This document shows, one piece after another, positions 14,824 through 45,808 of a DNA stretch of 64,000 bases. The notes under the pieces are model-generated. The model did not search any database, was not told the DNA's origin, and was given only the letters and a program-made list of their open reading frames with translations. Made by a program: the position numbers and the translations under genes. Positions within the stretch are counted from its first letter, which is position 1; each line of letters opens with the position of its first letter. This DNA is from an uncultured Gemmatimonadales bacterium (GTDB lineage Bacteria; Gemmatimonadota; Gemmatimonadetes; Gemmatimonadales; GWC2-71-9), in the NCBI GenBank assembly GCA_963832055.1, contig CAWHST010000004.1, positions 454,409 through 518,408 of the forward strand. The letters run 5' to 3'.

Positions 14824-16023
14824 TCAGATCAGGCGGAGCTGCCTCCCCACTTTGGAGAAGGCGCCAAGTGCCTGATCCAGGTCGTCCCTGGTGTGTGAGG
14901 CGGAGATCTGGCAGCGGACCCGCGCCTGGCCCTGGGGCACGACCGGGTAGCCGAAGCCGGTGACGAAGACGCCCTCGGCGAGGAGGAGGTCGCTCATGCG
15001 TATGGCGGCCGAGGTCTCGCCCAGGATCACGGGAATGATCGGGGTCTCGCCGGGCAGGGGCTTGAAGCCGAGCTCCAGTAGCCGCTCGCGAAAGTAGCGC
15101 GCCTGCTGGCGCAGGTGGGTGACGCGCTCGGGATGGGCCTCGAGGTATTCGATGCTGGCGAGCGAGCTGGCCGCCACGGTGGGCGGAAGCGCGTTGGAGA
15201 AGAGCTGGGGCCGCGCGCGTTGCGTCAGGTAGTCGCAGGTCGCCGCCGACGCGGCGACGAACCCGCCGGCGGCGCCGCCCAGCGCCTTGCCCAGCGTCGA
15301 GGTGATGATGTCCACGTCGCCCAGCATGCCGAAGTGCTCCGCCGTTCCCCGGCCGTTCGCGCCCAGCACACCGGTGGCGTGGGAGTCGTCCACCACCAGC
15401 ACCGCCTGGTGCCGGCGGCAGAGCTGGAGCAGGTCGGGCAGCCGCGCGATCGCGCCCTCCATCGAGAACACCCCGTCGGTGATCACCATCCGCACCCGCC
15501 GGTCGCGCGCGGCCGCCAGCTTCTGTTCCAGGTCGGCGAGGTCCGAGTGCTTGTAGACCGCCGTCTGGCACTTGGTGATCGCCTTGGCGAGCCGGACCCC
15601 GTCGATGATGGACGCGTGGTTGAGCTGATCGCTGATCACGATGTCGTCCTCGCCCAGCAACGTGCCGGGCACCGCTTCGTTGGCGTTCCAGCAGCTCACG
15701 AAGCTGAGCGCGGCCGGCGTGCCCACCAGCCGAGCGCAGGCCGCCTCCAGCGCGCGATGGACGGTGAAGGTTCCGCAGATGAAGCGGACCGAGGCGGTGC
15801 CCGCGCCCCAGCGGTCGAGCGCGGCCTTGCCGGCCGCGACGACCTCCGGCTGGTTGCTCAGGCCCAGGTAGTTGTTGGAAGACAGGATGATGACGTCGCC
15901 GCGTCCCTCCATACGGACCCGCGGCGCCTGGGGGCTGTCGAGGAAGTTGAGCCTCTTGTAGACCCCATCGCGGATGAACTGCTCCAGCTCGCTCTCCAGC
16001 CGCTGTTCCAGCGGGTTGCTCAT
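14824..16023 (-). CDS. kbl: 2-amino-3-ketobutyrate CoA ligase (glycine C-acetyltransferase)
   Basis: MSNPLEQRLESELEQFIRDGVYKRLNFL...ILSSNNYLGL...ICGT...DQLNHASIIDG...DGVFSMEG...VDDSHATG...ITSTLGKALGG (PLP lysine context). It forms an ATGA overlap with tdh. Track ORF 14824..17172 over-extends upstream. Confidence 0.93.
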   Translation of the reverse strand: MSNPLEQRLESELEQFIRDGVYKRLNFLDSPQAPRVRMEGRGDVIILSSNNYLGLSNQPEVVAAGKAALDRWGAGTASVRFICGTFTVHRALEAACARLVGTPAALSFVSCWNANEAVPGTLLGEDDIVISDQLNHASIIDGVRLAKAITKCQTAVYKHSDLADLEQKLAAARDRRVRMVITDGVFSMEGAIARLPDLLQLCRRHQAVLVVDDSHATGVLGANGRGTAEHFGMLGDVDIITSTLGKALGGAAGGFVAASAATCDYLTQRARPQLFSNALPPTVAASSLASIEYLEAHPERVTHLRQQARYFRERLLELGFKPLPGETPIIPVILGETSAAIRMSDLLLAEGVFVTGFGYPVVPQGQARVRCQISASHTRDDLDQALGAFSKVGRQLRLI

Positions 16024-17060
16024 GCCCCGACCTCCAGGATCACTTTCCCCGCCTGGCCCGCCTTGATGACCTGAATCGCGTCGCCGATGCACTCGAGCGG
16101 AAACCGATGGGTGATCACCGGCCGGGGATCGAGCTGTCCGGCCAGGAGGAATTGCCGCATCTGGTGCCAGGTCTCGTACATCTTCCGGCCGGTCACGCCG
16201 TAGAGGGTGAGTCCCTTGAAGATGACGTCGCGCGCGAAGTCGGTGTCGGTCCTGCGGCTCGGCGTGCCCAGCAGGTTGACCCGTCCACCGAGGCGCGCGG
16301 CGGCGAACGCGGTGGCGTGGCCGTCGGGATGACCGCTCATCTCGCAGACCAGATCCACGCCGTTCCCGCCGGTAAGCTCCTTGATCCGTGCCAGCACGTC
16401 GTCGTGGCCGGGGTCGAGGGTCACCTGGGCCCCCATGGCTCGCGCCAACTCCAGCCGGCGGGGATTGTAGTCGCTGGCGATCACCAGCGACGCCCCCGCC
16501 GCGCGGGCGACGCCGACCGCGAAGCACCCGATCGGCCCGCAGCCGAGGACGAACACGGTGTTGCCGGGCACCCGACCCTCGAGCACGGTGTGCACCGCAT
16601 TCCCCATGGGGTCCATGATGGCGCCGACCTCGGTGGGGATGCCGTCGAGCTTCATGACGTTGGACGCGGGCATCGCGATGAAATCGGCGAAGGCACCGTC
16701 GCGGTCCACTCCGATGATCTGGGTCCGCTGGCAGAGGTGGGCGTCGCCGAGCCGGCACTGGAGGCAGTGGCCGCACACGATGTGTCCCTCGGCGGTCACC
16801 AGGTCGCCGACGGCGAGCAGGCCGGCGGTCTCGGCCTCCTGCCCCAGCTCCACGATCTCCCCGGCGAACTCGTGGCCCACGACCACCGGCGGCTTGAGCC
16901 GCTGGCTGGCCCAGGTGTCCCACTCCCAGATATGGAGATCGGTGCCGCAGACGCCGGCGTGCCGGACGCGGATCAGGACCTCGGAGGAGCCGCAGGTGGG
17001 CTTGGCGACATCGCGGAGCACCATCCCGGGTCCGGGGCCTGCTTTCACCAGAGCGCGCAT
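16020..17060 (-). CDS. tdh: L-threonine 3-dehydrogenase (Zn-dependent MDR family)
   Basis: MRALVKAGPGPG...VRHAGVCGTDLHIWEWDTWA...VVGHEFAGEIVELG...GHCLQCRLGDAHLC...VLGCGPIG. The order tdh-kbl is the classic threonine degradation operon. Confidence 0.93.
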   Translation of the reverse strand: MRALVKAGPGPGMVLRDVAKPTCGSSEVLIRVRHAGVCGTDLHIWEWDTWASQRLKPPVVVGHEFAGEIVELGQEAETAGLLAVGDLVTAEGHIVCGHCLQCRLGDAHLCQRTQIIGVDRDGAFADFIAMPASNVMKLDGIPTEVGAIMDPMGNAVHTVLEGRVPGNTVFVLGCGPIGCFAVGVARAAGASLVIASDYNPRRLELARAMGAQVTLDPGHDDVLARIKELTGGNGVDLVCEMSGHPDGHATAFAAARLGGRVNLLGTPSRRTDTDFARDVIFKGLTLYGVTGRKMYETWHQMRQFLLAGQLDPRPVITHRFPLECIGDAIQVIKAGQAGKVILEVGA

Positions 17061-17122
17061 GGGGGTCCAGGAAGAAGTCGGGGGGAATATAGGAGAGGTC
17101 GGGTATCAGCCATCCATCGAGG

Positions 17123-17214
17123 AAAGCGTGAACGGTGAACAGTGAACGGTGAAAGGGAAGGTGGCATGACACGCACCCTCCCTTTCACCGTTCACTGTTC
17201 ACCGTTCACGCTTT
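17123..17214. repeat. REP-like palindromic element, family A copy 1 (arms built of GTGAACN heptads)
   Basis: The left arm is CGTGAACGGTGAACAGTGAACGGTGAAAGGGAAGGTG. The right arm is its reverse complement with one mismatch, and the loop is ~10 nt. The stop of the FdhA-like gene (17206-17208) lies inside the right arm, and the tdh start (17060) lies downstream. Confidence 0.7.
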
Positions 17215-20207
17215 TGTGGTAATGAATCCGCCTGGAGTTTGGCGACCCGCCGCCGCCGCTGGCTTGGCGAGCTCTCTTGCCCTCGCCCGCTCGATGCGGA
17301 CCGCGCTGATCTTGAACGCGGCGATGCGGGCGTAAGGGTCGAGCTGCGGGTTGGTCAGCAGGTTGGCGGCGGCCTCCCGGAAATGCATCGGCATGAACAC
17401 CTGGCCCAGCGCCTGCCGGTCGGAGATGCGGACCCCGATGAGCACCGCCCCGCGGCGGGAAGTGACCCGAACGGTGTCGCCCTCGCATACGCCGAGGTCG
17501 ATGGCGTCGGCGGGATGGATCTCGATGATCGGGGTCGGCTCGCGGGAGTCGAGCCCTTCCGACCGGCGCGACATCGTTCCGGTGTGCCAGTGGTACATCT
17601 GGCGCCCGGTGTTGAGGATGTACGGGTACTCCTCGCTCGGCAGCTCGTCCGGCTTGAGGAACTCGACGGGCACGAAGCGGGCCTTGCCGTCCGGCGTGGG
17701 AAACGCGTCCTGGAAGAGAAACGGCGTACCGGTCGAGTCGGGGGTCGGCACCGGATACTGGATCGAGCGCAGCCGCTCGAGCATCGCGTAGCTCACCCCG
17801 CGCCACGACGGCGTCACGCTGGCGATCTCGCGCATCACGTCGCCCGGCGAGCGATAGTCGGTGGGCAGCCCGAGCCGGTTGCTCAGCTCGATCAGGATGT
17901 CGAGGTCGCGGCGCGCCTGACCGGGCGGATCGAGCGCGGCCTCGGTGAGCTGAATGTGGCGGTCGGTATTGACGAAGGTGCCACCCTTTTCGGCGAAGGA
18001 GGAGCCCGGGCAGCACCACGTCCGCCCAGCGCGCGGTCTCGGTGAGGAACAGGTCCTGTACCGCCAGGAACTCCAGCCCGCGCACCCAGTGCTCGGCGTG
18101 GGAGATGTTCGGATCGGAGAGCACCGGGTTCTCGCCCATGATGTAGAGGCCGCGGATCGGGCTGTCGTCCTGCACCATCTCCGTGACCATCAGTCCGTGC
18201 TGGAGCGAGAGGGACTCCTCCGGCACCCGCCAGGCCTTGGCGTACTCGGCGCGGTTGGCGGCGTCGGTGACCGGCCGGTAGTCGGTGTAGGCGAACGGGA
18301 TCGCGCCCATGTCGCTGGCGCCCTGCACGTTGTTCTGGCCCCGGATGGGGAGCATCGCCGCGCCCCACTTCCCGATCATCCCGCAGGCGAGCATCAGGTT
18401 CAACAGGCTCGCCACGATGTCGGTGCCGGTGTTGTGCTGGGTGAGGCCCATCGCCCAAAGGGTCGAGGTGCGCGGTCCCCGGGCATACATCTCCGCGGCG
18501 GCGCGGATGGTCGCCGCCGGGATGCCGGTGATCTTGGCGGTGCTCTCCGGGGTGTAGCCCGCGACCGACTCCTTTACCTTCTCGAAATCGTGGGTCCGCC
18601 CCTCGATGAACTTCCGGTCGGTGAGCCCGGCGGCGATGATGTGGTTCACCATCCCGTTGTAGAGCGCCACGTCGGTGCCCGGCAACATCTGGAGATGGAT
18701 GTCGGCCAGGTCGGCAAGCTCCGTGCGCCGGACGTCGGCGACGATGAGGCGCGCGCCCTTGGATACCGCCCGCTTGATCAGCGCGCCGAAGACCGGATGG
18801 GTCTCGGTGGTATTGGCGCCCGAGATGAAGATGACGTCGCACGCCTCCTCGATCTCCCGCATCGAGCCCGACGCCGCGGAGGTCGCGAGCGCGCGGCCCA
18901 TCGCCGCCACGGAGCTCGAGTGGCAGAGCCGGGTGCAGTGGTCCACGCTGTTGGTGCCGAAGCCGGCCCGGACCATCCGCATGAAGACGTAGTTGTCCTC
19001 GTTGCTGCACTTGGCGGAGGAGAGCGCGGCCAGCGCGCGCGGGCCGTGGACCTGGCGGATCCGCTTCAGCTCCTGAGCCACCAGGCTCAGCGCCTCATCC
19101 CAGGTGGCCTCGCGGAACGCGCTGTGCCATGCCGGCGGGGTGGCGACGCGATCGCGCACGTCGTCCTCCTCCGCGTTGGGCACGCCGGTCATCGGCGGCT
19201 TTCCCACGCTGCGCTGTGGGCGGCCGAGGCTTCTTTCGAGAGCCCATCTCCTCGATCGTCTGCCAGGGGCCTTCGCGGTGCCGGGGCCATTCGCCGGTCC
19301 ATACCCACTGCTCGCCGTCGTGCATCCAGCCTTTGCGGATCACCGGGGTCATCAACCGGTCCCGGTGCATCGGGAAGTCGTAGCCGAAGCGCCCCTTCAC
19401 GCAGGTCGAGCCCTGGTTCGGCGTCCGCTCCTCGATGTCGGGCGAGGTGACCCGCATGATCTGGTCGCCTTTCACGTGGAGATCGATCTGGCACCCTACG
19501 CCGCAGTAGGGACAGACCGAGCGGACCACCTTGTCGGGGGTGCGGACGGCCTCCGATCCGAAGCGCTGTTTGGGGATGAACTCGAAGATCGCTCCGGTGG
19601 GGCAGACCCGGACGCACTCGCCGCACCAGGTGCAGCCCGCGTGATCGGGGTCGCCGTCGCCGCCGACGATGATCTGAGCATGCTCGCCCCGCATCCCCAC
19701 ATCGAGCACCCCTACCTCCTGGATGTCCTCGCAGGCCCGCACGCAGCGGGTGCAGAGGATGCAGGTGCTCATGTCGTGCTGGATCATCACGTCGCCGGGA
19801 CGCTCGTCGCCGGACCGGAGGGGAAGCTCGTGATAGTCGCGGATGGGGACGTCGTACTGAGTGACGTAGCGCTCGAACTCGTTGCGCGGGTGGCTGCGTC
19901 CACCGTTCTGGAGGTGCTCGCCCGGATATCGCTCGAGCAGGAGGCCGAGAACGCCCCGACGACTCTCTACGGCGGCCTGGGACTCGGTCTCCACCACCAT
20001 GCCCTCGGCCGCCGGCGTGGCGCAGGCGGGCACCATCTTGCCCTGGCCCTGAACCGACACCAGGCAGATGCGGCAGTTCCCCACGATGGGCAACTTGGGG
20101 TACCAGCAGAGGGTCGGGATGTCGATGCCGGCGGCCCGGGCGGCCTCCAGGATGGTGGCCCCAGGCTCGAAAGCAACGTCACTGCCGTTGACGACAATCT
20201 TGGCCAT
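17206..20207 (-). CDS. FdhA/FdsA-like molybdopterin oxidoreductase alpha subunit (2Fe-2S + 4Fe-4S + MopB + C-terminal molybdopterin-binding domain); two frameshifts
   Basis: ORF 19095..20207 gives MAKIVVNGSDV...CWYPKLPIVGNCRICLV..., the CILCTRCVRAC, CTWCGECVRVCP and CPYCGVGCQIDLH clusters. ORF 17192..19207 gives ...CSNEDNYVF...DHCTRLCHSSS...GANTTETHPV...RGQNNVQG. The frame of ORF 17206..17838 extends upstream to ~18005 (SSFAEKGGTFVNTDRHIQL...YILNTGRQMYHWHTG...). Shifts at ~19210 and ~18005. Confidence 0.88.
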
Positions 20208-20290
20208 TGCGCACCGAGTTTCGGCGGAAGACAGGCGATCTAAGTGAGTTTAGACCCGGCAGATGGGAGGGGCAAGGGGAGCTGGCGGGC

Positions 20291-20324
20291 AAAAGAAACA
20301 CCCCCGGACCACGGTCGGGGGTGT
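20291..20324 (-). terminator. Rho-independent terminator (minus strand)
   Basis: On the minus strand: ACACCCCCG-(9 nt)-CGGGGGTGT followed by TTCTTTTG. It lies downstream of the small ORF ending at 20368 and upstream of the FdhA-like start at 20207. Confidence 0.6.
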
Positions 20325-20367
20325 GCCTCGATACGCCGACCTCGCGCAGCGAGCGCCTTGCGCGCTG

Positions 20368-20535
20368 CTACGCGGCGTGTTCCGTCGGGACCCGCTGATG
20401 CCAGTGGTCCTGGGCGGTCTCCTCGTCCGCGGCCCACATGTAGGCCCAGAAGCGCACGGGCTTCGGGGCGGGCCCGCCGTTCTTGATGACGATGCCGAGC
20501 GGCGCCGAGGGAACGGCGATGGGGATGGTGGTCAC
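20368..20535 (-). CDS. Hypothetical small protein (55 aa)
   Basis: GTG start preceded by GAGGAAAG 5 nt upstream (MTTIPIAVPSAPLGIVIKNGGPAPKPVRFWAYMWAADEETAQDHWHQRV...). An intrinsic terminator follows. No family recognised. Confidence 0.35.
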   Translation of the reverse strand: MTTIPIAVPSAPLGIVIKNGGPAPKPVRFWAYMWAADEETAQDHWHQRVPTEHAA

Positions 20536-20670
20536 GGGACTTTCCTCGCTGACGAGAGAGCCACGACTGCGTCTCGCCCGAGAGAAGGCACGCCCCATGC
20601 CTCCCTGATGCAGGCCGCTAACCTGTTACAACAACGGAGTTTGGAGGGCGGGGAAACAGCCGGCCAAGTG

Positions 20671-21552
20671 TCAGTTGGACGCGGCGAGCGGTGATGCCGC
20701 CGCGTCCGGTGGACACGTGGGCTTGGCGAGCAAAAGCCCATCGGGCCGGCGGGCGGTGATCGCGCGCTTGCGGCGCGGCGGCTCCTCTTCCACGGTCCAT
20801 CCGTCGTAGAGCCCGCGGATCGAATCCGGCGACAGCGCCCGGCACCCACCCAGCACCACGTGAACTCCCCCGGGGCGACTGCGCCGCTGGAGATCCTTGA
20901 GAAGCGCGGCACGGGCGGGCGGCTTGAACCCGGACAGCGTGTTGGGGTCGAGGACGACGATGTCCACTCCGTCGAGCGCCTCGAGGAAGCCGGGCAGCGC
21001 CGGCCCGAGAGGCGCCACGAAGCCCTCGAACAGACTCGCCAGTGCTTCCGCCGCCATGCGAGACTCGACCCGCTCGACGCAGCCGACGTCGCAGGTCACG
21101 AAGGTGACAGCGGCATCGTGCGCGGCGAGGAGGTAGGTGGCCGGCTCCGCACCGGCGCCGATCACCAGCGCGGTATCGTGCGACTCGATGCGGGGCAGGA
21201 GGCGGGCGAGCGCGCACCCGCCGTCGAGACCCCAATGCACCGGGGTGCGCTGCGCCTCGCGCAGCTTCCGGAACTGCTCGCGCCAACGGCGATAGGGCCG
21301 GAGGGCGAGCCGCTTCATGATGAGCCGGTCCACCGTCTCGAGCATGAGCACTTCGGTGAGCACGAACTGGCCCTCGGACGTCGCCTGCAACTCCGAGGCG
21401 GCCTCGTCGCCCAGTCGCATCAATTCCTCCCGGCCGATCGAGTTCTTGAATCCCTCGATCCGCTGGAGGATGTACTCGTGATAGTGCTGCTTGTCGGAAT
21501 AGGGCGAGCGCCGCCGCCGCTGAGCGCCACGGATCTCGGTGGCGTTCAGCAT
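20671..21552 (-). CDS. Hypothetical protein; C-terminal half resembles a Rossmann/class-I methyltransferase-like fold
   Basis: Intact 293-aa ORF. The pattern ...TALVIGAGAEPATYLLAAHDAAVTFVTCD...IVVLDPNTL...RPGGVHVV is only suggestive. The N-terminal ~110 aa are unrecognised. Confidence 0.55.
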   Translation of the reverse strand: MLNATEIRGAQRRRRSPYSDKQHYHEYILQRIEGFKNSIGREELMRLGDEAASELQATSEGQFVLTEVLMLETVDRLIMKRLALRPYRRWREQFRKLREAQRTPVHWGLDGGCALARLLPRIESHDTALVIGAGAEPATYLLAAHDAAVTFVTCDVGCVERVESRMAAEALASLFEGFVAPLGPALPGFLEALDGVDIVVLDPNTLSGFKPPARAALLKDLQRRSRPGGVHVVLGGCRALSPDSIRGLYDGWTVEEEPPRRKRAITARRPDGLLLAKPTCPPDAAASPLAASN

Positions 21553-21718
21553 GACGTCCTGATCGGCAGGAGGCCGCGCGCAACGGGGCGGCCGGTGACG
21601 AAGTTCACCGAATAAGCTGTATGGAATGGGCTCCGGACGGACGATGGCCCCACGAAGGCCACCGTGATTGACAATGGTGCAAATTCATACATCGGGTGGG
21701 TCGGGTCAAGGCGGCAAG

Positions 21719-22873
21719 CTAGTCTGCCTCCAAAAGGGCGCCCTTGAGGTATCCCGTCTCGGGGATGGTCAGTACCTCGGGGTGATCCTCACCCTGGCCC
21801 AGGATGCGCCGCACGCGGATCCGGCGGCCGCTGTCGCCGGCGGCCTCGGTGAGCATCGCGAGGAACTCCGGCAGCCGGACGTGGAACGAGCAGGAGGCCG
21901 TCAGCAGCGTGCCGCCGGGAGCGAGGCAGCGCATCGCGCGGAGGTTGATCTCCCGGTAGCCGCGGATCGCATCCGGGACCGTGGCCCGAGACTTGGCAAA
22001 GGCTGGGGGGTCGAGCACGATGGTGTCGAACCGCTCCCGCGCTCGGGCCATCGTGCGGAGCGCCTCGAAGGCGTCGGCTTCGCGAAACTCGAGATTGGCC
22101 AGGCCGTTGAGCGCCGCATTGGCTCTGGCCCTCTCCAGTGCGTCCCCGCTCGAGTCGAGGGCGAGCACGCTGCCGGCCCGCCTCGCCAGATGCAGGGCGA
22201 ACGAGCCGTGATACGTGAAACAGTCCAGAGCTCGCCCACCCTGACGGGTGATGTCCCCGGCGAGCAGGCGATTGGGGCGCTGGTCGAGAAACGCCCCGGT
22301 CTTCTGTCCGTCCCAGGGGGCGGCGAGGTACCGCACGCCGCCTTCGCGCACCTCGATCTCCCGGGGCACCGAGCCGAAGACCTCCTCGATCTCGGCCGGA
22401 AGGTGCTCCCGGCGGCGGGCGGGGACGTCGTGCCGGAGCAGGATGCCCGCGGGGTCGAAGAGTGAGGCGAGCGCGTCGAGGATCGGCTGCCGCATCGTCT
22501 CCAACCCGGCGGAGAGAATCTGCGCCACGATCCATCTGTCGTAGCGATCCACCACCAGTGAAGGCAATCCGTCCCCTTCACCATGCACCAACCGGCAGGC
22601 TGTGGCGTCGATGCCGGCCCGGCGGGCCGCGGCCGCCTCGATCCGTTCCCGCCACCACGCCGGGTCCACGGCGCGGTCGCCGCGCTCCAGCAAACGCAGC
22701 CTGATCTCCGACCCTGGGGAGAGCAGCCCCTGGCCGATGAATCGGCCGCGCGGGTCCTGGACGGGCACCAGGCCCGGCTCGGGCGGATGGCTCTCGACGT
22801 CGCTGCGATAGATCCAGGGATGTCCTCGAACCCAGCGCTCGGCGCCGCGCGCCGTCACTCGGGCAGGGATCAC
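21719..22873 (-). CDS. rlmI: 23S rRNA m5C methyltransferase RlmI-like (PUA + class I SAM MTase)
   Basis: ...GHPWIYRSDV...LVHGEGDGLPSLVVDRYD...QKTGAFLDQRPNR...ALDCFTYHGSFALHLA...IVLDPPAFAKS...YREINLRAMRCLAPGGTLLTASCS. The GTG start at 22871-22873 forms a GTGA overlap with the aroH stop. Track ORF 21719..23938 is a read-through extension. Confidence 0.85.
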   Translation of the reverse strand: MIPARVTARGAERWVRGHPWIYRSDVESHPPEPGLVPVQDPRGRFIGQGLLSPGSEIRLRLLERGDRAVDPAWWRERIEAAAARRAGIDATACRLVHGEGDGLPSLVVDRYDRWIVAQILSAGLETMRQPILDALASLFDPAGILLRHDVPARRREHLPAEIEEVFGSVPREIEVREGGVRYLAAPWDGQKTGAFLDQRPNRLLAGDITRQGGRALDCFTYHGSFALHLARRAGSVLALDSSGDALERARANAALNGLANLEFREADAFEALRTMARARERFDTIVLDPPAFAKSRATVPDAIRGYREINLRAMRCLAPGGTLLTASCSFHVRLPEFLAMLTEAAGDSGRRIRVRRILGQGEDHPEVLTIPETGYLKGALLEAD

Positions 22874-23244
22874 GCCCGGTCGGGACGGAGAACCGTGGCC
22901 CCCCGCAGATAGCAATGCTTGATTTCGCCGCGGTCGCGGCGAGTGTAGGCGTGAACCAGCAGCCGGATGCAGCGGGGAAGCGACCCCGGCACTGGAATTT
23001 CCGACGCGTGCAGCAGCGCCACGATGTTCCACCCGAAGTCCTCCGCGGCCCGGGCGGGGAAGGCGGCGTCGAGGTCCCGGGTGACCGTGAAGAGCGCGCT
23101 CACGATGTCGTCGGGCTGGAGCTCGTTGCTCTCGATCAGCGTGCGGAGCAGCTCGTCGGTCGCGGCGAGGATCTCGGACGCGTCGTTGCGCTCGACGGTG
23201 GTGGCGCCGCGGATGCCGTGCAACCGGGGAGTGGGGAGCGTCAT
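22870..23244 (-). CDS. aroH: Chorismate mutase, AroH class
   Basis: MTLPTPRLHGIRGATTVERNDASEIL...ALFTVTRDLDAAFPA...CIRLLVHAYT...HCYLRGATVLRPD closely follows the monofunctional AroH pattern (IRGIRGATTVE...VFPA...CIRV...LRPD). Confidence 0.88.
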   Translation of the reverse strand: MTLPTPRLHGIRGATTVERNDASEILAATDELLRTLIESNELQPDDIVSALFTVTRDLDAAFPARAAEDFGWNIVALLHASEIPVPGSLPRCIRLLVHAYTRRDRGEIKHCYLRGATVLRPDRA

Positions 23245-23860
23245 GGCAGATAATGTAGCGGCGATGGTTCGGCTGATGCTCGTCACCGACGACCGGTTGG
23301 TCGAGGGACGGGACCTGGTGGCGCTGGCGCTGGCCGCCGAGCGCGGCGGGGCGACGTCGTTGCAGCTTCGGCTCAAGCTGGCCTCGCCCCGCGAGCAGGT
23401 CGACCGAGCCCGCGCGCTGGTCGCGGCACTGCGGATCCCGGTGCTGGTGAACGACCGGCCCGACATCGCGCTCGCCGCGGGGGCCGCCGGTGTGCACCTC
23501 GGCCCGGACGATCTGCCGGTGGCGCTGGCCCGCCGGATAGCGCCACCCGGCTTCATCATCGGCGCCTCGGTCGGCGCGGCCGCCGAAGCCGATGCCGCGG
23601 CCCAGGCCGACTACTGGGGCATCGGACCCTGGAGGGCGACGGGGACGAAGGCGGACGCGGGTGCGGCGCTCGGGGCGGAGGGGTTCCGAAGGCTTTCGGC
23701 GCTGGGAGCCGGCAGGCCGTGCATCGCCATCGGTGCCGTGCGGCCGGAGGACGTGCCTCTGGTGCTCGCTGCCGGCGGGTCTGGGGTGGGGGTGGTATCG
23801 GGGATACTCGGAGAGGAGGACGTGGAGCGGGCCACCCGGCGATTCGCGGCCTCGGGATGA
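23243..23860 (+). CDS. thiE: Thiamine-phosphate synthase
   Basis: ...RLMLVTDDRL...GGATSLQLRLK...RIPVLVNDRPDIALAAGAAGVHLGPDDLP...IIGASV...ADYWGIGPWRATGTKAD...IAIGAV...GGSGVGVVSGIL. An alternative start is at 23264. Confidence 0.88.
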   Translation: MADNVAAMVRLMLVTDDRLVEGRDLVALALAAERGGATSLQLRLKLASPREQVDRARALVAALRIPVLVNDRPDIALAAGAAGVHLGPDDLPVALARRIAPPGFIIGASVGAAAEADAAAQADYWGIGPWRATGTKADAGAALGAEGFRRLSALGAGRPCIAIGAVRPEDVPLVLAAGGSGVGVVSGILGEEDVERATRRFAASG

Positions 23861-23873
23861 CAGGTGCCGCCTG

Positions 23874-24956
23874 CTATCTCCCTCGCCGCACCCGCGCGAT
23901 CGACCGCAGGTGCTCGTCGTAGGTCTTGGAGAACACATGCCGTCCGTCCGGCCCCGCCACGAAATAGAGGTAGGGCACCTTCGCTGGATGGAGCGAGGCC
24001 TCGAGGCTCCGCCGGCTGGGTGAGTTCACCGGCCCCGGCGGCAAGCCCCGGTTGAGGTAGGTGTTGTACGGCGACCGGAACTGATAGTCTCTGGTGAAGA
24101 GCCTGGGCTTGCGCTTTCCGGTGGCGAGGAAGATCGCGTACTGCACCGTCGGGTCGGCCTGCAGCGCCATCCCGATGCGAAGCCGGTTGTGGTAGACCCC
24201 GGCGATCGTTTCGCGCTCGTCATCGGCCCGCGCCTCGCCTTCCACGATCGAGGCGAAGGTGACCAGCTGCGCCGGGGTCCAGCCCAGGGAATCGAGGCGC
24301 CGGTCCCACTCGGGCTTCCAGGCCGACTTGAATCCCTCGGCCATCACCCGCACCAGCTCCGGCGCCGTCGTTCCCAGCCGGAGCGAGTAGGTCTCCGGCC
24401 GGAGGAATCCCTCGAACGAACGGACCGGAAAACCCAATGTCGCCGAGGCGGCGGCGCTGTCTCGCGCGGCGGCCATCACCGAGTCGGCCGGTATCCCAAG
24501 CTTCTGTTGCGCCAGCGCCGAAACCTCGGGAATGGTGAGGCCCTCGGGGACCGTGAACCGGGTCGCCACCTCGTCGCCCGCCTCGAGGATATCGAGCACT
24601 TTCCAGACGGAGATTCCGGGGGTGAACTGGTACACTCCCGCCCGCACCGAGCGGTCGGCGCCCCGCACCCGGGCGATCAACTTGAACCAGAAGCGGCTCC
24701 TGACGACGCCGTGGGCGGCCAGCGTGTCAGTCACCGCCGAGAAAGTCGCACCGGGCGGGAGGGTGACCCGTTCGGCGGAGGAGTTGCTGCCGCAGGCGAG
24801 GAGGGTGAGGGTGAGAAGGAAGCACAGGGCGGACGGGCGGACGGGCGGACGGGCGGAACCAAGGGCCGCTACCGAACCTTGCTCCGGGCATCGGGCACCG
24901 TCCGTCCGTCCGCCCGTCCGCCCGTCCGCCCTACCGGTCACGCACCCGCCTGGCAT
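23874..24956 (-). CDS. mltG: Endolytic murein transglycosylase MltG (YceG-like)
   Basis: ...AGVYQFTPGISVWKVLDIL...FTVPEGLT...GFLRPETY...LVTFASIVEGEA...IAGVYHNRLRIGMALQADPTVQY...SPYNTYLNRGLPPGPVNSP...YLYFVA. The start is uncertain (ATG 24956 or GTG 24941), and the N-terminus is read through palindromic element B1. Confidence 0.88.
   Translation of the reverse strand: MPGGCVTGRADGRTGGRTDGARCPEQGSVAALGSARPPVRPSALCFLLTLTLLACGSNSSAERVTLPPGATFSAVTDTLAAHGVVRSRFWFKLIARVRGADRSVRAGVYQFTPGISVWKVLDILEAGDEVATRFTVPEGLTIPEVSALAQQKLGIPADSVMAAARDSAAASATLGFPVRSFEGFLRPETYSLRLGTTAPELVRVMAEGFKSAWKPEWDRRLDSLGWTPAQLVTFASIVEGEARADDERETIAGVYHNRLRIGMALQADPTVQYAIFLATGKRKPRLFTRDYQFRSPYNTYLNRGLPPGPVNSPSRRSLEASLHPAKVPYLYFVAGPDGRHVFSKTYDEHLRSIARVRRGR
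24827..24931. repeat. REP-like palindromic element, family B copy 1 ((GGACGGGC)n arm / ~40-nt loop / (GCCCGTCC)n arm)
   Basis: GGGCGGACGGGCGGACGGGCGGACGGGCGGA occupies 24827-24857. CCGTCCGTCCGTCCGCCCGTCCGCCCGTCCGCCC occupies 24898-24931. At least 24 nt of the two arms are perfectly complementary. Confidence 0.7.
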
Positions 24957-25374
24957 CCAGGAAATGCTGCAGCAGCACCGCGGCCGCCAGTGAATCCACG
25001 TCGGCTTTCCGGCCCCGAGTACTGCCGCCCTGCTCGCGAATAGCGGCGAGCGCCCGCGCGGTGCTCATCCGCTCGTCCCACAGCTCGACCGGGAGCCCGC
25101 TCTTGCCGGCCAGGCCGCCGGCGAGCTCGCGGGCGGCGACGGCGCTCTCCTCCTCGTCACCCTCACCGGTCAGCGGCAAGCCCACCACTAGGCCGGACGG
25201 CTCGTGCAGCGCGATCAGCTCGAGGAATCTCGACATGGGAAAGCGCTTGCCCCGCCGGCGGACCAGCGTCTCCAGCGGCGTGGCCAGGGTTTGAGTCTCG
25301 TCGCTGAGCGCCAGGCCGATCCGGACCTCGCCCCAGTCGACCGCCAGAATCCGGCCCTCCACGGGAAGTGGCAT
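24931..25374 (-). CDS. ruvX: Putative pre-16S rRNA nuclease / Holliday junction resolvase-like YqgF
   Basis: MPLPVEGRILAVDWGEVRIGLALSDE...GLVVGLPL...DERMSTARA. Track ORF 24931..25449 over-extends into palindrome A2. Confidence 0.88.
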   Translation of the reverse strand: MPLPVEGRILAVDWGEVRIGLALSDETQTLATPLETLVRRRGKRFPMSRFLELIALHEPSGLVVGLPLTGEGDEEESAVAARELAGGLAGKSGLPVELWDERMSTARALAAIREQGGSTRGRKADVDSLAAAVLLQHFLDARRVRDR

Positions 25375-25387
25375 CCGGGGAATAAAG

Positions 25388-25466
25388 CGGGAAAGGTGAA
25401 CCGTGAACAGTAAAAGGGGGTCGCAGGACGACCCCCCTTCACCGTTCACCGTTCACTTTTCCCGCT
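25388..25466. repeat. REP-like palindromic element, family A copy 2 (GTGAACN heptad arms, imperfect)
   Basis: GCGGGAAAGGTGAACCGTGAACAGTAAAAGGGGGTCG / CAGGA / CGACCCCCCTTCACCGTTCACCGTTCACTTTTCCCGC, with ~5 arm mismatches. It begins 5 nt after the rho stop (25471) and lies ahead of the ruvX start (25374). Confidence 0.65.
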
Positions 25467-25470
25467 GTAT

Positions 25471-26724
25471 CTACTGGGCCATCGTGGCGAAGAATTCCTT
25501 GTTGTTCTTGGTCCGCTTCATCCGCTCGAGCAGGAACTCGAGCGCCTCGACCGGCGGCATGTCCGCCAGGAAGTTGCGCAGCAGGTAGACCCGGTTGAGC
25601 TCGTCCTTGTCCATCAGGAGCTCCTCCTTACGGGTCGAGGTGCGCTGGATATCGATCGCGGGGTAGATCCGGCGGTCGGCCAGGCGGCGGTCGAGCACCA
25701 GCTCCGAGTTGCCGGTGCCCTTGAACTCCTCGAAGATCACCTCGTCCATCCGGCTGCCGGTGTCCACCAGCGCCGTGGCGATGATGCTGAGGCTGCCCCC
25801 CTTGTCGATGTTCCGGGCGGCGCCGAAGAACCGCTTGGGCTTCTGCAGCGCGTTGGCGTCCACGCCGCCGGAGAGAATCTTGCCGGAGTGCGGGACCACC
25901 ACGTTGTGCGCCCGCGCCAGACGGGTGATCGAGTCGAGCAGGATCACCACGTCGCGGCCGTGCTCCACCAGCCGCTTCGACTTCTCGATCACCATGTCGG
26001 CCACCTGGACGTGACGGTCGGCCGGCTCGTCGAAGGTGGAGGAGATGACCTCCGCCTTGACGTTCTCCTCCATGTCGGTGACCTCCTCGGGGCGCTCGTC
26101 GATCAGCAGCACGATGAGGACGATCTCGGGATGGTTCTCGCTGATCGCGTTGGCGAGCTTCTGCATCAGGATGGTCTTACCCGCCTTGGGCGGCGCGACG
26201 ATCAGCGCGCGCTGGCCTTTCCCGAGCGGGGCGAGAAGGTCTACCACCCGCATGGAGAGGTCGCTGTTCTTGCGCTCCAGCCGGATCCGGGAATCGGGGT
26301 ACCGCGGTCGAAGGTTGTCGAACGCGATGCGGTGTTTGGTCTTTTCCGGCTCCTCGAAGTTGACCTGCTCGACCTTGAGCAAGGCGAGGTAGCGCTCCCC
26401 TTCCTTGGGCGGTCGCACCTGGCCCATGACGGTGTCGCCGGTACGGAGGTCGAACCGCTTGATCTGGCTGGGGCTGACGTAGATGTCGTCGGGTCCGTAC
26501 AGGTAGTTCCAGTCCTGGCTCCGGAGGAAGCCGTACCCTTCGGGCAGGATCTCCAGCACTCCCTCGCCCCGGATCACGGTGTCGGAGTCGAGCAGCGACT
26601 GCTCGATGCGGAAGATCAGGTCCTGCTTCCGCAGCCCTGAGTAGTTGGTGATGTTCAACTGCTCGGCGAGAGTGTGCAGCTCGGCGACCGACTTCTGTTT
26701 CAGCTCAGCGATATCCACGGACAT
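25471..26724 (-). CDS. rho: Transcription termination factor Rho
   Basis: [25 protein letters not shown]...[14 protein letters not shown]...[19 protein letters not shown]...[12 protein letters not shown]...[13 protein letters not shown]...GGVDANAL...RIYPAIDI. The start is set at the ATG at 26722-26724, and the track ORF extends to 26910. Confidence 0.95.
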
Positions 26725-45664: not shown

Positions 45665-45808
45665 GGCGGACGGGCGGGCGGACGGGCGGACGGGCGGACA
45701 GGCGGACGGGCCGGGAATCATGGACGGCAACGGAGTGCTGGGCGAGATGGCAGCCCAGGCGCCAGCCGACCCGCTGTCCGCCCGTCCGTCCGTCCGCCCG
45801 TCCGCCCC
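45665..45808. repeat. REP-like palindromic element, family B copy 2
   Basis: GGCGGACGGGCGGGCGGACGGGCGGACGGGCGGACAGGCGGACGGGCC (45665-45712), a ~58-nt loop, then CCGCTGTCCGCCCGTCCGTCCGTCCGCCCGTCCGCCCC (45771-45808). It starts 2 nt after the poly-HAMP kinase stop. The loop holds the ATG (45720) of the next gene. Confidence 0.7.

Follow-up and report, generated by a model that had tools for sequence, protein, structure and literature searches.

Heptanucleotide tandem repeats of cyanobacteria, the STRR, were reportedly described by Mazel et al. in 1990. In Xanthomonas and Nostoc, the heptamers GGGAATC and GGGGAYT are found 50 bp or less from stop codons, some of them as inverted pairs (PMC4692102), and inverted heptanucleotide arrays of Geobacter carry an annotation as putative sites of global regulators (PMC2700814). 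TAACTGA repeats of marine Beggiatoaceae and cyanobacteria present stop codons in all three frames and overlap only the very end of an open reading frame (ORF) (PMC4679880). The 23S rRNA of Coxiella burnetii contains an intervening sequence (IVS) in which terminal inverted repeats with tandem heptamers (GACAGAT) form a 28-bp stem and an S23p ORF is located in the loop; the origin and mobility of this IVS are unknown (PMC4990558). Repetitive extragenic palindromic (REP) sequences are 20–40 nt imperfect palindromes with the tetranucleotide GTAG or CGTC at one end (PMC3733652), and for REPs and the related REPINs, roles in mRNA 3′ stabilisation and in termination have been proposed (PMC3733652, PMC2817692). 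The element described here, designated hairpin family A, is a palindrome with arms of tandem GTGAACN-type heptads, and two copies of it follow genes in a 64 000 nt stretch (the window) of an uncultured Gemmatimonadales bacterium of the GTDB genus GWC2-71-9 (GenBank assembly GCA_963832055.1, contig CAWHST010000004.1, positions 454 409–518 408).

Family A is probably best regarded as a population of IVS-like, gene-less hairpin repeats of the heptamer-array class, and not as a dedicated stop-plus-terminator device. Heptamer repeats and IVS-like hairpins are known already, and family A is a further form of these. It is one “flavour” within a larger class of hairpins that have arms of 7–9 nt tandem repeats; this class fills the genus, and each genome has its own dominant unit. 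To judge from the sequences, the full-size form of the class is one that carries a PF05635 gene in its loop. The genome assembly that includes the window (3.99 Mb in 6 contigs, 70% GC, CheckM completeness 62%, 6175 coding segments with many frameshifts) contained 87 non-redundant palindromic copies of family A and about ten solo arrays, compared with 4 arrays in the shuffled genome. Within the window itself, a pattern of two heptads was matched 11 times against 1.0 expected, a number reached in none of 100 shuffles.

The 87 copies had a median length of 77 nt and a median stem of 34 pairs, with arms of 28–40 nt composed of 3–5 GTRAAMR heptads each. In the heptad logo (G-T-R-A-A-M-R), positions G1, A4 and A5 were at least 95% invariant, and position 3 was G in 78% and A in 19%, so the triplet remains TGA or TAA; in heptad units 2–4, TGA was kept, or changed to TAA, in 98%. 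Positions 6 and 7 each had two states (C/A and G/A, respectively), by which the arms are mosaics of four unit types, and the innermost heptads were A-rich (GTGAAAG, GTAAAAG). The element borders were sharp, with GAAMAGC-GKGAAC on one side, GTTCMC-GCTKTT on the other, and background composition beyond; both conserved ends (GAAMAGC/GCTKTT) were present in 65 of the 87 copies. The tips, 12–30 nt in length and mostly GG...CC mini-hairpins, were all different, and the tip motif was too rare for loop orientation to be scored against transcription.

For gene mapping, a codon-usage model was built from 969 long ORFs and combined with maximal-segment calling and a local six-frame test beside each element. 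According to this map, 37 of the copies lay between convergent, 47 between tandem and 3 between divergent genes, when the gaps of 40 nt or more in the whole genome comprised 291 convergent, 2177 tandem and 337 divergent cases (10/78/12%). The difference was highly significant (chi-square p = 5e-22), with a fourfold convergent excess (p = 1e-14) and a divergent deficit (p = 0.005), and none of the 87 copies was found inside a gene. The initial annotation of the window had suggested that further copies be compared for stop-codon distance and for orientation relative to the upstream genes. The former comparison bore out its expectation genome-wide, as 84 of the 87 copies adjoined at least one gene 3′-end; for the latter, the orientation of a copy is not definable, the palindrome showing GTGAAC heptads as its 5′ arm on both strands.

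From the 117 gene ends approaching family A, 53 (45%) stopped within the element on a TGA or TAA. The stops were supplied at offsets +1, +8, +15 and +22 (12, 16, 18 and 7 cases, for heptads 1–4), and the three frames were used uniformly (p = 0.54). The remaining gene ends had their stops at most 15 nt upstream (31), 16–50 nt upstream (27) or elsewhere (6), and the TGA share of stops was 68% beside the elements and 69% genome-wide. The association of family A with gene ends and stop codons is strong. The all-frame stop is, however, more simply explained as a tolerance filter, by which an array is allowed in the last codons of an ORF and excluded from gene interiors; the same point has been published for the TAACTGA repeats (PMC4679880). 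For annotation, it is of consequence that a repeat supplies the final codon of 45% of the neighbouring genes, and that such repeats break short-read assemblies.

One family A locus (contig C1, 55929–56396) encoded, in the 399 nt between its arms, a 134-residue protein of PF05635 (23S_rRNA_IVP; E = 6e-18). The only other PF05635 gene of this genome (contig C6, 746063–746356) was located between arms of a second hairpin family, B, one arm consisting of 19 octamers. In 23 genomes of the genus, 26 of 30 PF05635 loci (L145–L174) were bracketed by inverted tandem arrays of 7, 8 or 9 nt, and three of the four unbracketed loci were cut by contig ends; several PF05635 loci end at contig edges. The arm units were different at almost every locus, were found both with and without stops, and differed between genes of one genome. 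In the relative G005, the PF05635 arms were composed of AGTGACA, the abundant flavour of that genome. About 60 GTGACAA arrays of G005 surfaced as matches to a reversed control pattern, and the same unit flanks a PF05635 gene (L172). The gene-less family A hairpins would be derivatives of such PF05635 cassettes, in the way that miniature elements are of their gene-bearing parents. Location of an IVS within the 23S rRNA of the genome itself was rejected, since no tandem arrays were found over 7 kb downstream of the only match to a 16S primer motif, which marked the sole rRNA operon located.

Two other families, B and C, were obtained by a survey of all long inverted repeats in the genome. Family B has octamer-array arms (GGCGGAAC/GGACGGGC), loops of 27–150 nt and, by strict count, at least 39 copies, two of which are in the window (24827–24931 and 45665–45808) and others elsewhere (e.g. 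contig C6, 745905–746560); its loops often hold a nested family C palindrome. Family C is a palindrome of ca. 82 nt, TGTCATCCCGAGCGnAGCGAGGGATC... (TGTCATCCCGAGCGnAGCGAGGGATCTT...AAGATCCCTCGCTnCGCTCGGGATGACA), with about 41 copies at gene ends (e.g. contig C1, 225344–225425, and contig C4, 110492–110573), some of them within read-through frames.

Families B and C adjoined stop codons as tightly as family A, and 26 of the 44 gene ends approaching family B stopped at most 15 nt upstream of it. The stops supplied by families B and C themselves numbered only 3 and 4, and B or C copies are in some cases traversed by an ORF. Since these two families are found at gene ends almost without stops, the gene-end position is a property of the whole class, with stops or not.

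Arrays of at least four GTGA-NNN heptads were found in 43 of the 61 genomes of the GTDB genus; GTGA was fixed in the pattern, and the result says nothing on GTGA conservation. The units differed by genome (GTGAACR, GTGAAGR, GTGAGAR, GTGAGCG, GTGACAA, GTGACTC, GTGAATG). The relatives are other species, mostly represented by fragmented metagenome-assembled genomes (MAGs) from short reads with under-assembled repeats.

Retention as well as turnover was observed at orthologous sites. At the rho-ruvX junction, a long hairpin followed the rho stop directly in 12 of 12 species compared, built of different units, including the stop-less GACGGAAG, GCGAAAG and GGGGAAA. In the three genomes checked in this respect, the unit at the junction was the dominant one of the genome (the genome of the window; G073, GTGAAGR; G016, GTGAGAR). 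The rho-ruvX hairpins of the window genome, G044 and G073 aligned heptad by heptad, which indicates inheritance of the site and a drift of the unit along with its family. The tdh/fdhA junction, occupied by family A in the window, contained a family-C-like hairpin in G021 and G075, a family-C-like hairpin nested in octamer arms in G020, and almost nothing in G060. In G061, the same junction had a small TGAAC-containing GAAC...GTTC hairpin, where the stop context AAA GCC TGA AC matches the outer heptad in the window. Among the orthologous sites compared, no clean filled/empty pair with exact junctions was seen. The family B copy at 24827–24931, between ruvX and a YceG-like gene, was present in the window genome only and absent at the same junction in 11 related species.

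The family A unit was also encountered outside the phylum. Species-representative genomes scanned for three GTGAACR units yielded at least 120 stretches, and among the matches listed direct arrays were found in cyanobacteria, Bacteroidota, Cloacimonadota and others, long ones in cyanobacteria and Bacteroidota. True hairpins (GTGAAC arm, loop, GTTCAC arm) were present in MAGs of Acidobacteriota, Chloroflexi, Bacteroidota, Vulcanimicrobiota, and Beta-, Gamma- and Deltaproteobacteria with 34–68% GC (loci L027, L041, L043, L046, L048, L051, L062, L066, L079, L093, L102 and L103). Long ORFs end at or within these hairpins too, and unequal array length in the two arms was common. One Chloroflexi copy mixed GTGAACA with GTCAACA, reportedly the cyanobacterial heptamer STRR3 (CAACAGT) described by Mazel et al. 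in 1990.

In comparison with the IVS carrying an S23p/PF05635 ORF (Coxiella burnetii, Leptospira; PMC4990558), the hairpins of the class share an inverted-repeat stem containing tandem heptamers, and an ORF for a PF05635 four-helix bundle in the loop (here at one family A locus, at one family B locus, and at the 26 of 30 loci of the genus). Unlike the IVS, they are located between protein-coding genes and not in rRNA, and nearly all are gene-less. Excision by RNase III is also unlikely, as no RNase III domain was detected in the order: PF14622 had no match in the window genome, PF00636 had none in this genome or in 30 relatives (nine genera, 20 relatives being at least 90% complete), each search being positive in 8 of 14 control genomes, and the RNase III signature motif was absent from the six-frame translation. 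Processing by RNase III was consequently dropped as a mechanism, and the order Gemmatimonadales may be without a classical RNase III.

Family A has the features of the intergenic heptameric simple sequence repeats, i.e. at least 3–4 tandem 7-nt units, intergenic location, proximity to an upstream stop, and rarity between divergent genes. With the repeats of Xanthomonas and Nostoc (PMC4692102), the cyanobacterial STRR and the Geobacter arrays (PMC2700814), it shares ca. four units of 7 nt near or overlapping the upstream stop, the occurrence of inverted pairs able to form stem-loops, and a position conserved in relatives with variable length and sequence. In contrast to these, the inverted-pair hairpin is the rule in family A (87 paired copies against about 10 solo), the unit is A-rich, stop-bearing and not G4-forming, and the GAAMAGC/GCTKTT flanks define a discrete element. 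The TAACTGA repeats are likewise stop-bearing heptamers with all-frame stops governing their location, but they form direct repeats, with one inverted case, and most of them shortly precede a start codon, whereas family A is palindromic and downstream of genes. The exact family A sequence gave no bacterial match in the literature, and nothing useful was found there on STRR3 or on PF05635 with inverted repeats.

Among mobile palindromes, the REP/REPIN elements, associated with RAYT transposases (PMC3733652, PMC2817692), are similar in being high-copy extragenic palindromes that are enriched both between convergent genes and inside operons. Family A differs from them in having no GTAG/CGTC head, in its much longer stems, and in that the stem itself is a tandem repeat. 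A REP/RAYT system was ruled out by the missing head and by the missing RAYT gene, as the Y1 transposase model (PF01797) had 0 matches in the genome, which may be incomplete, when the control search was positive in 6 of 14 genomes. A classical miniature inverted-repeat transposable element was rejected likewise, because no target-site duplication was recognised (k = 2–6, offsets −2 to +4, matches in the 65 copies that have both conserved ends being as many as expected from shuffling) and because the gene-bearing relatives found carry only PF05635 ORFs, not known transposases. Integron attC sites (RYYYAAC...GTTRRRY) were set aside by inspection only, with no integrase search made: the arms are GTGAAC/GTTCAC, and the copies lie scattered among housekeeping genes, in either orientation. 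The LexA “Cheo box” (GAAC-N4-GTTC) fits neither in spacing nor in sequence.

If family A is such a gene-less population, the elements would have spread or been homogenised within the genome by a route other than a classical transposase, with gene conversion or a protein-guided process possibly homogenising the unit, and the copies would persist where harm is least. With a stop in every heptad and a period of 7 (7 mod 3 = 1), an array may sit in or right after the last codons while changing no more than about 7 residues, and the stop-bearing unit would widen the niche of the element to the last codons of genes. In RNA, the hairpin would be a very stable 3′ or intercistronic stem, most likely blocking 3′ exonucleases and pausing or partly terminating RNA polymerase, and in operons such as rho-ruvX the stem would have to be read through.

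Several observations weigh against this reading. No mobility was observed, neither target-site duplication nor RAYT transposase having been found, and no tip was shared by two of the 87 copies, which leaves no recent whole-element duplicates. A PF05635 gene was present in only 1 of 88 family A loci and in none of the other 87, including both copies of the window, and in other genomes a PF05635 ORF was near only 2 of the 120 GTGAACR loci among the matches listed. In favour of the reading, the number of GTGA arrays correlated with that of PF05635 genes over 31 genomes (Spearman 0.63, p = 1.7e-4), but the figure is uncorrected for phylogeny or assembly quality. The gene calls were our own and crude, made on a frameshift-rich assembly. 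Selection at the RNA level found no support in a test of wobble asymmetry, in which plus/minus-type transition mismatches numbered 48/40 (++), 44/42 (−−) and 52/53 (convergent); G:U-type mismatches were thus without strand bias and gave no positive sign of selection for RNA structure. Compensatory covariation of the arms was discarded as well, since arm complementarity within a copy (84%) barely exceeded that between copies (80%, p = 1.6e-5), by which most of the pairing stems from the shared unit.

A more ambitious version of the favoured reading, which we put forward tentatively and consider possible but doubtful, is that heptamer-armed hairpins and PF05635 genes constitute one self-maintaining system. 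In such a system, an Avd-like pentamer would read the 7-nt arrays or help to copy them, family A would be the gene-less population, the TGA unit would be an adaptation to last codons, and the apparent lack of RNase III would let RNA stems of 30–45 bp accumulate in transcripts. It would, if true, explain the genome-specific flavour of the unit, even at orthologous hairpins such as that after rho. Both the origin of the rRNA IVS and the meaning of the scattered heptamer repeats in bacteria have been open for about 30 years. The genus is a rich natural test set for them, with dozens of species having their own units, nearly every sampled PF05635 gene enclosed by arms, and a clear gene-less population. 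It lets one ask by what means dispersed hairpins become uniform when no transposase is known for them, and how mRNAs are affected by very long stems where RNase III seems to be lacking, as its apparent absence would leave 30–45 bp RNA stems uncut.

The initial annotation had favoured a combined all-frame stop and structure cassette, and its extension to a selected bidirectional gene-end “insulator”, in which all-frame stops arrest any ribosome, frameshifted or read-through ones included, and the hairpin terminates transcription or stabilises the 3′-end, we hold to be unlikely. The part concerning the stops stood, as they are real and used by 45% of the neighbouring genes. The fourfold enrichment between convergent genes, the TGA/TAA retained in 98% of units 2–4, the hairpin after rho in all 12 species, and the adjacency of GTGAACR hairpins to ORF ends in other phyla all agree with an insulator, and the GAAAAGC/GCTTTTC flanks are reminiscent of bidirectional terminators with their A-tract and U-tract. 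The part concerning a device was not supported. Families B and C are located in the same way, equally close to stops and almost without supplying any, the non-stop positions G1, A4 and A5 were as invariant as TGA itself, which is thus not singled out, and rho stops on its own TAG before the element. The transition mismatches showed no strand-specific tolerance of G:U, though copy 2 singly does fold better on the rho-sense strand.

Termination fared no better in this respect. T-runs of at least 3 within 12 nt were present at 34% of family A ends against 2% in the background, and runs of at least 4 at 14%, but this T-rich tail is merely the TKTT of the palindrome and not a terminator-grade U-tract. 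At the two window copies, there were 0 sites of the canonical intrinsic type (GC-rich stem and U-tract, at least 5 T in 8), and consensus promoter and terminator scans gave no calls. The earlier statement that neither copy is followed by a U-tract is correct in that no consensus terminator was called, but not literally, as the GCTKTT end gives TTTT at copy 1 (plus strand) and TTTATT at copy 2 (minus strand). In 27 of 45 tandem copies, the next coding signal was at most 30 nt from the element, which leaves no room for a promoter, and transcription must read through these operon-internal copies, also between rho and ruvX, where the gene begins ca. 10–14 nt after copy 2. In Rfam, the only matches were below threshold and to models of animal miRNA hairpins, as is generic for long stems.

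Less likely still is that there is neither an element nor a function, the arrays having arisen by local polymerase slippage and their inverted pairs been perfected by template switching across old terminator hairpins, the stems of which remain as the tips, with ectopic gene conversion homogenising the unit. No other long simple repeat is as common in bacteria as the heptamer, and slippage has been proposed as the cause of the heptamer excess (cited in PMC4679880 and PMC4692102). Such an origin would suit the unique GC-rich tip mini-hairpins, which resemble native terminator stems, the A-rich innermost heptads (GTGAAAG, GTAAAAG), which resemble A/U tracts, and the absence of target-site duplications and transposase from the results. 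It is also in line with arms that are mosaics of four heptad variants, not mutated copies of one master, with the frequently unequal array lengths of the two arms, and with the TGAAC-containing mini-hairpin at the fdhA stop of G061. Slippage cannot, however, explain one unit common to about 87 loci or its recurrence in distant phyla, and the GAAMAGC/GCTKTT ends of 65 of the 87 copies and the association with PF05635 are left unexplained by it.

Very improbable, finally, is that the arrays are putative sites at gene ends for a sequence-specific protein binding DNA or RNA (a global regulator or the PF05635 pentamer), for although the phased 7-nt units with an invariant G-T-R-A-A core, the genome-specific flavour suggestive of co-evolution with a reader protein, the array counts co-varying with PF05635 gene counts, and the annotation of the Geobacter arrays (PMC2700814) speak for it, the units around different PF05635 genes of one genome differ, and the hairpin would bury the units in duplex.

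As for the two copies in the window, both hairpins described in the initial annotation were confirmed with strong predicted folds, and its count of two copies holds within the window, when 87 exist genome-wide. The complete palindrome of copy 1 (17122–17215) consists of a GAAAGC flank, four heptads, the tip, four heptads and a GCTTTT flank, the short flanks lengthening the stem. On the plus strand, the 5′ arm (17128–17155) reads GTGAACG GTGAACA GTGAACG GTGAAAG and the 3′ arm (17182–17209) reads CTTTCAC CGTTCAC TGTTCAC CGTTCAC; between them lies a GC-rich, copy-specific tip of 26 nt (17156–17181, GGAAGGTGG-loop-CACCCTCC). The predicted folding energy was −82.9 kcal/mol (z = −14.4) on the minus strand, which is that of the FdhA-like gene, and −81.2 kcal/mol (z = −12.1) on the plus strand. 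Copy 2 (25384–25468) reads AAAGC, GGGAAAG GTGAACC GTGAACA GTAAAAG, tip, 3′ arm and GCTGT, and folded with −68.9 kcal/mol (z −11.7) on the rho-sense strand and −57.6 kcal/mol on the opposite one; its “about 5 mismatches” are G.U pairs on the rho-sense RNA. As had been proposed, the period of 7 brings TGA into all three frames; this applies to the side from which either strand is entered, and in GTAAAM units TAA takes the place of TGA.

Read on the minus strand, the 3′ arm of copy 1 is the GTGAAC arm that is entered by the FdhA-like molybdopterin oxidoreductase gene (17206–19207, minus strand), and the TGA stop of the ORF with the Molydop_binding domain (17206–17208, minus strand) is the TGA of the outermost heptad. 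This gene is split by a frameshift near 17840–17990, probably one of many indel errors of the assembly; a domain search placed PF00384 in the ORF 17192–19207 and PF01568 in the ORF 17206–17838, and the second frame stops at 17192–17194, likewise within copy 1. Downstream of copy 1 is a tdh-like Zn-dependent dehydrogenase gene (16020–17060, minus strand), with its start (17058–17060) 61 nt from the element. The rho stop, TAG (25471–25473, minus strand), lies just outside copy 2, at a distance of 2–7 nt depending on the boundary drawn. On the other side of copy 2, the likely ATG start of ruvX (MPLPVEGRILAVDWG..., 25372–25374, minus strand) is found about 10–14 nt beyond the element, which leaves ruvX no space for its own promoter; in the longer ORF, residue 33 is the first of the RuvX Pfam domain.

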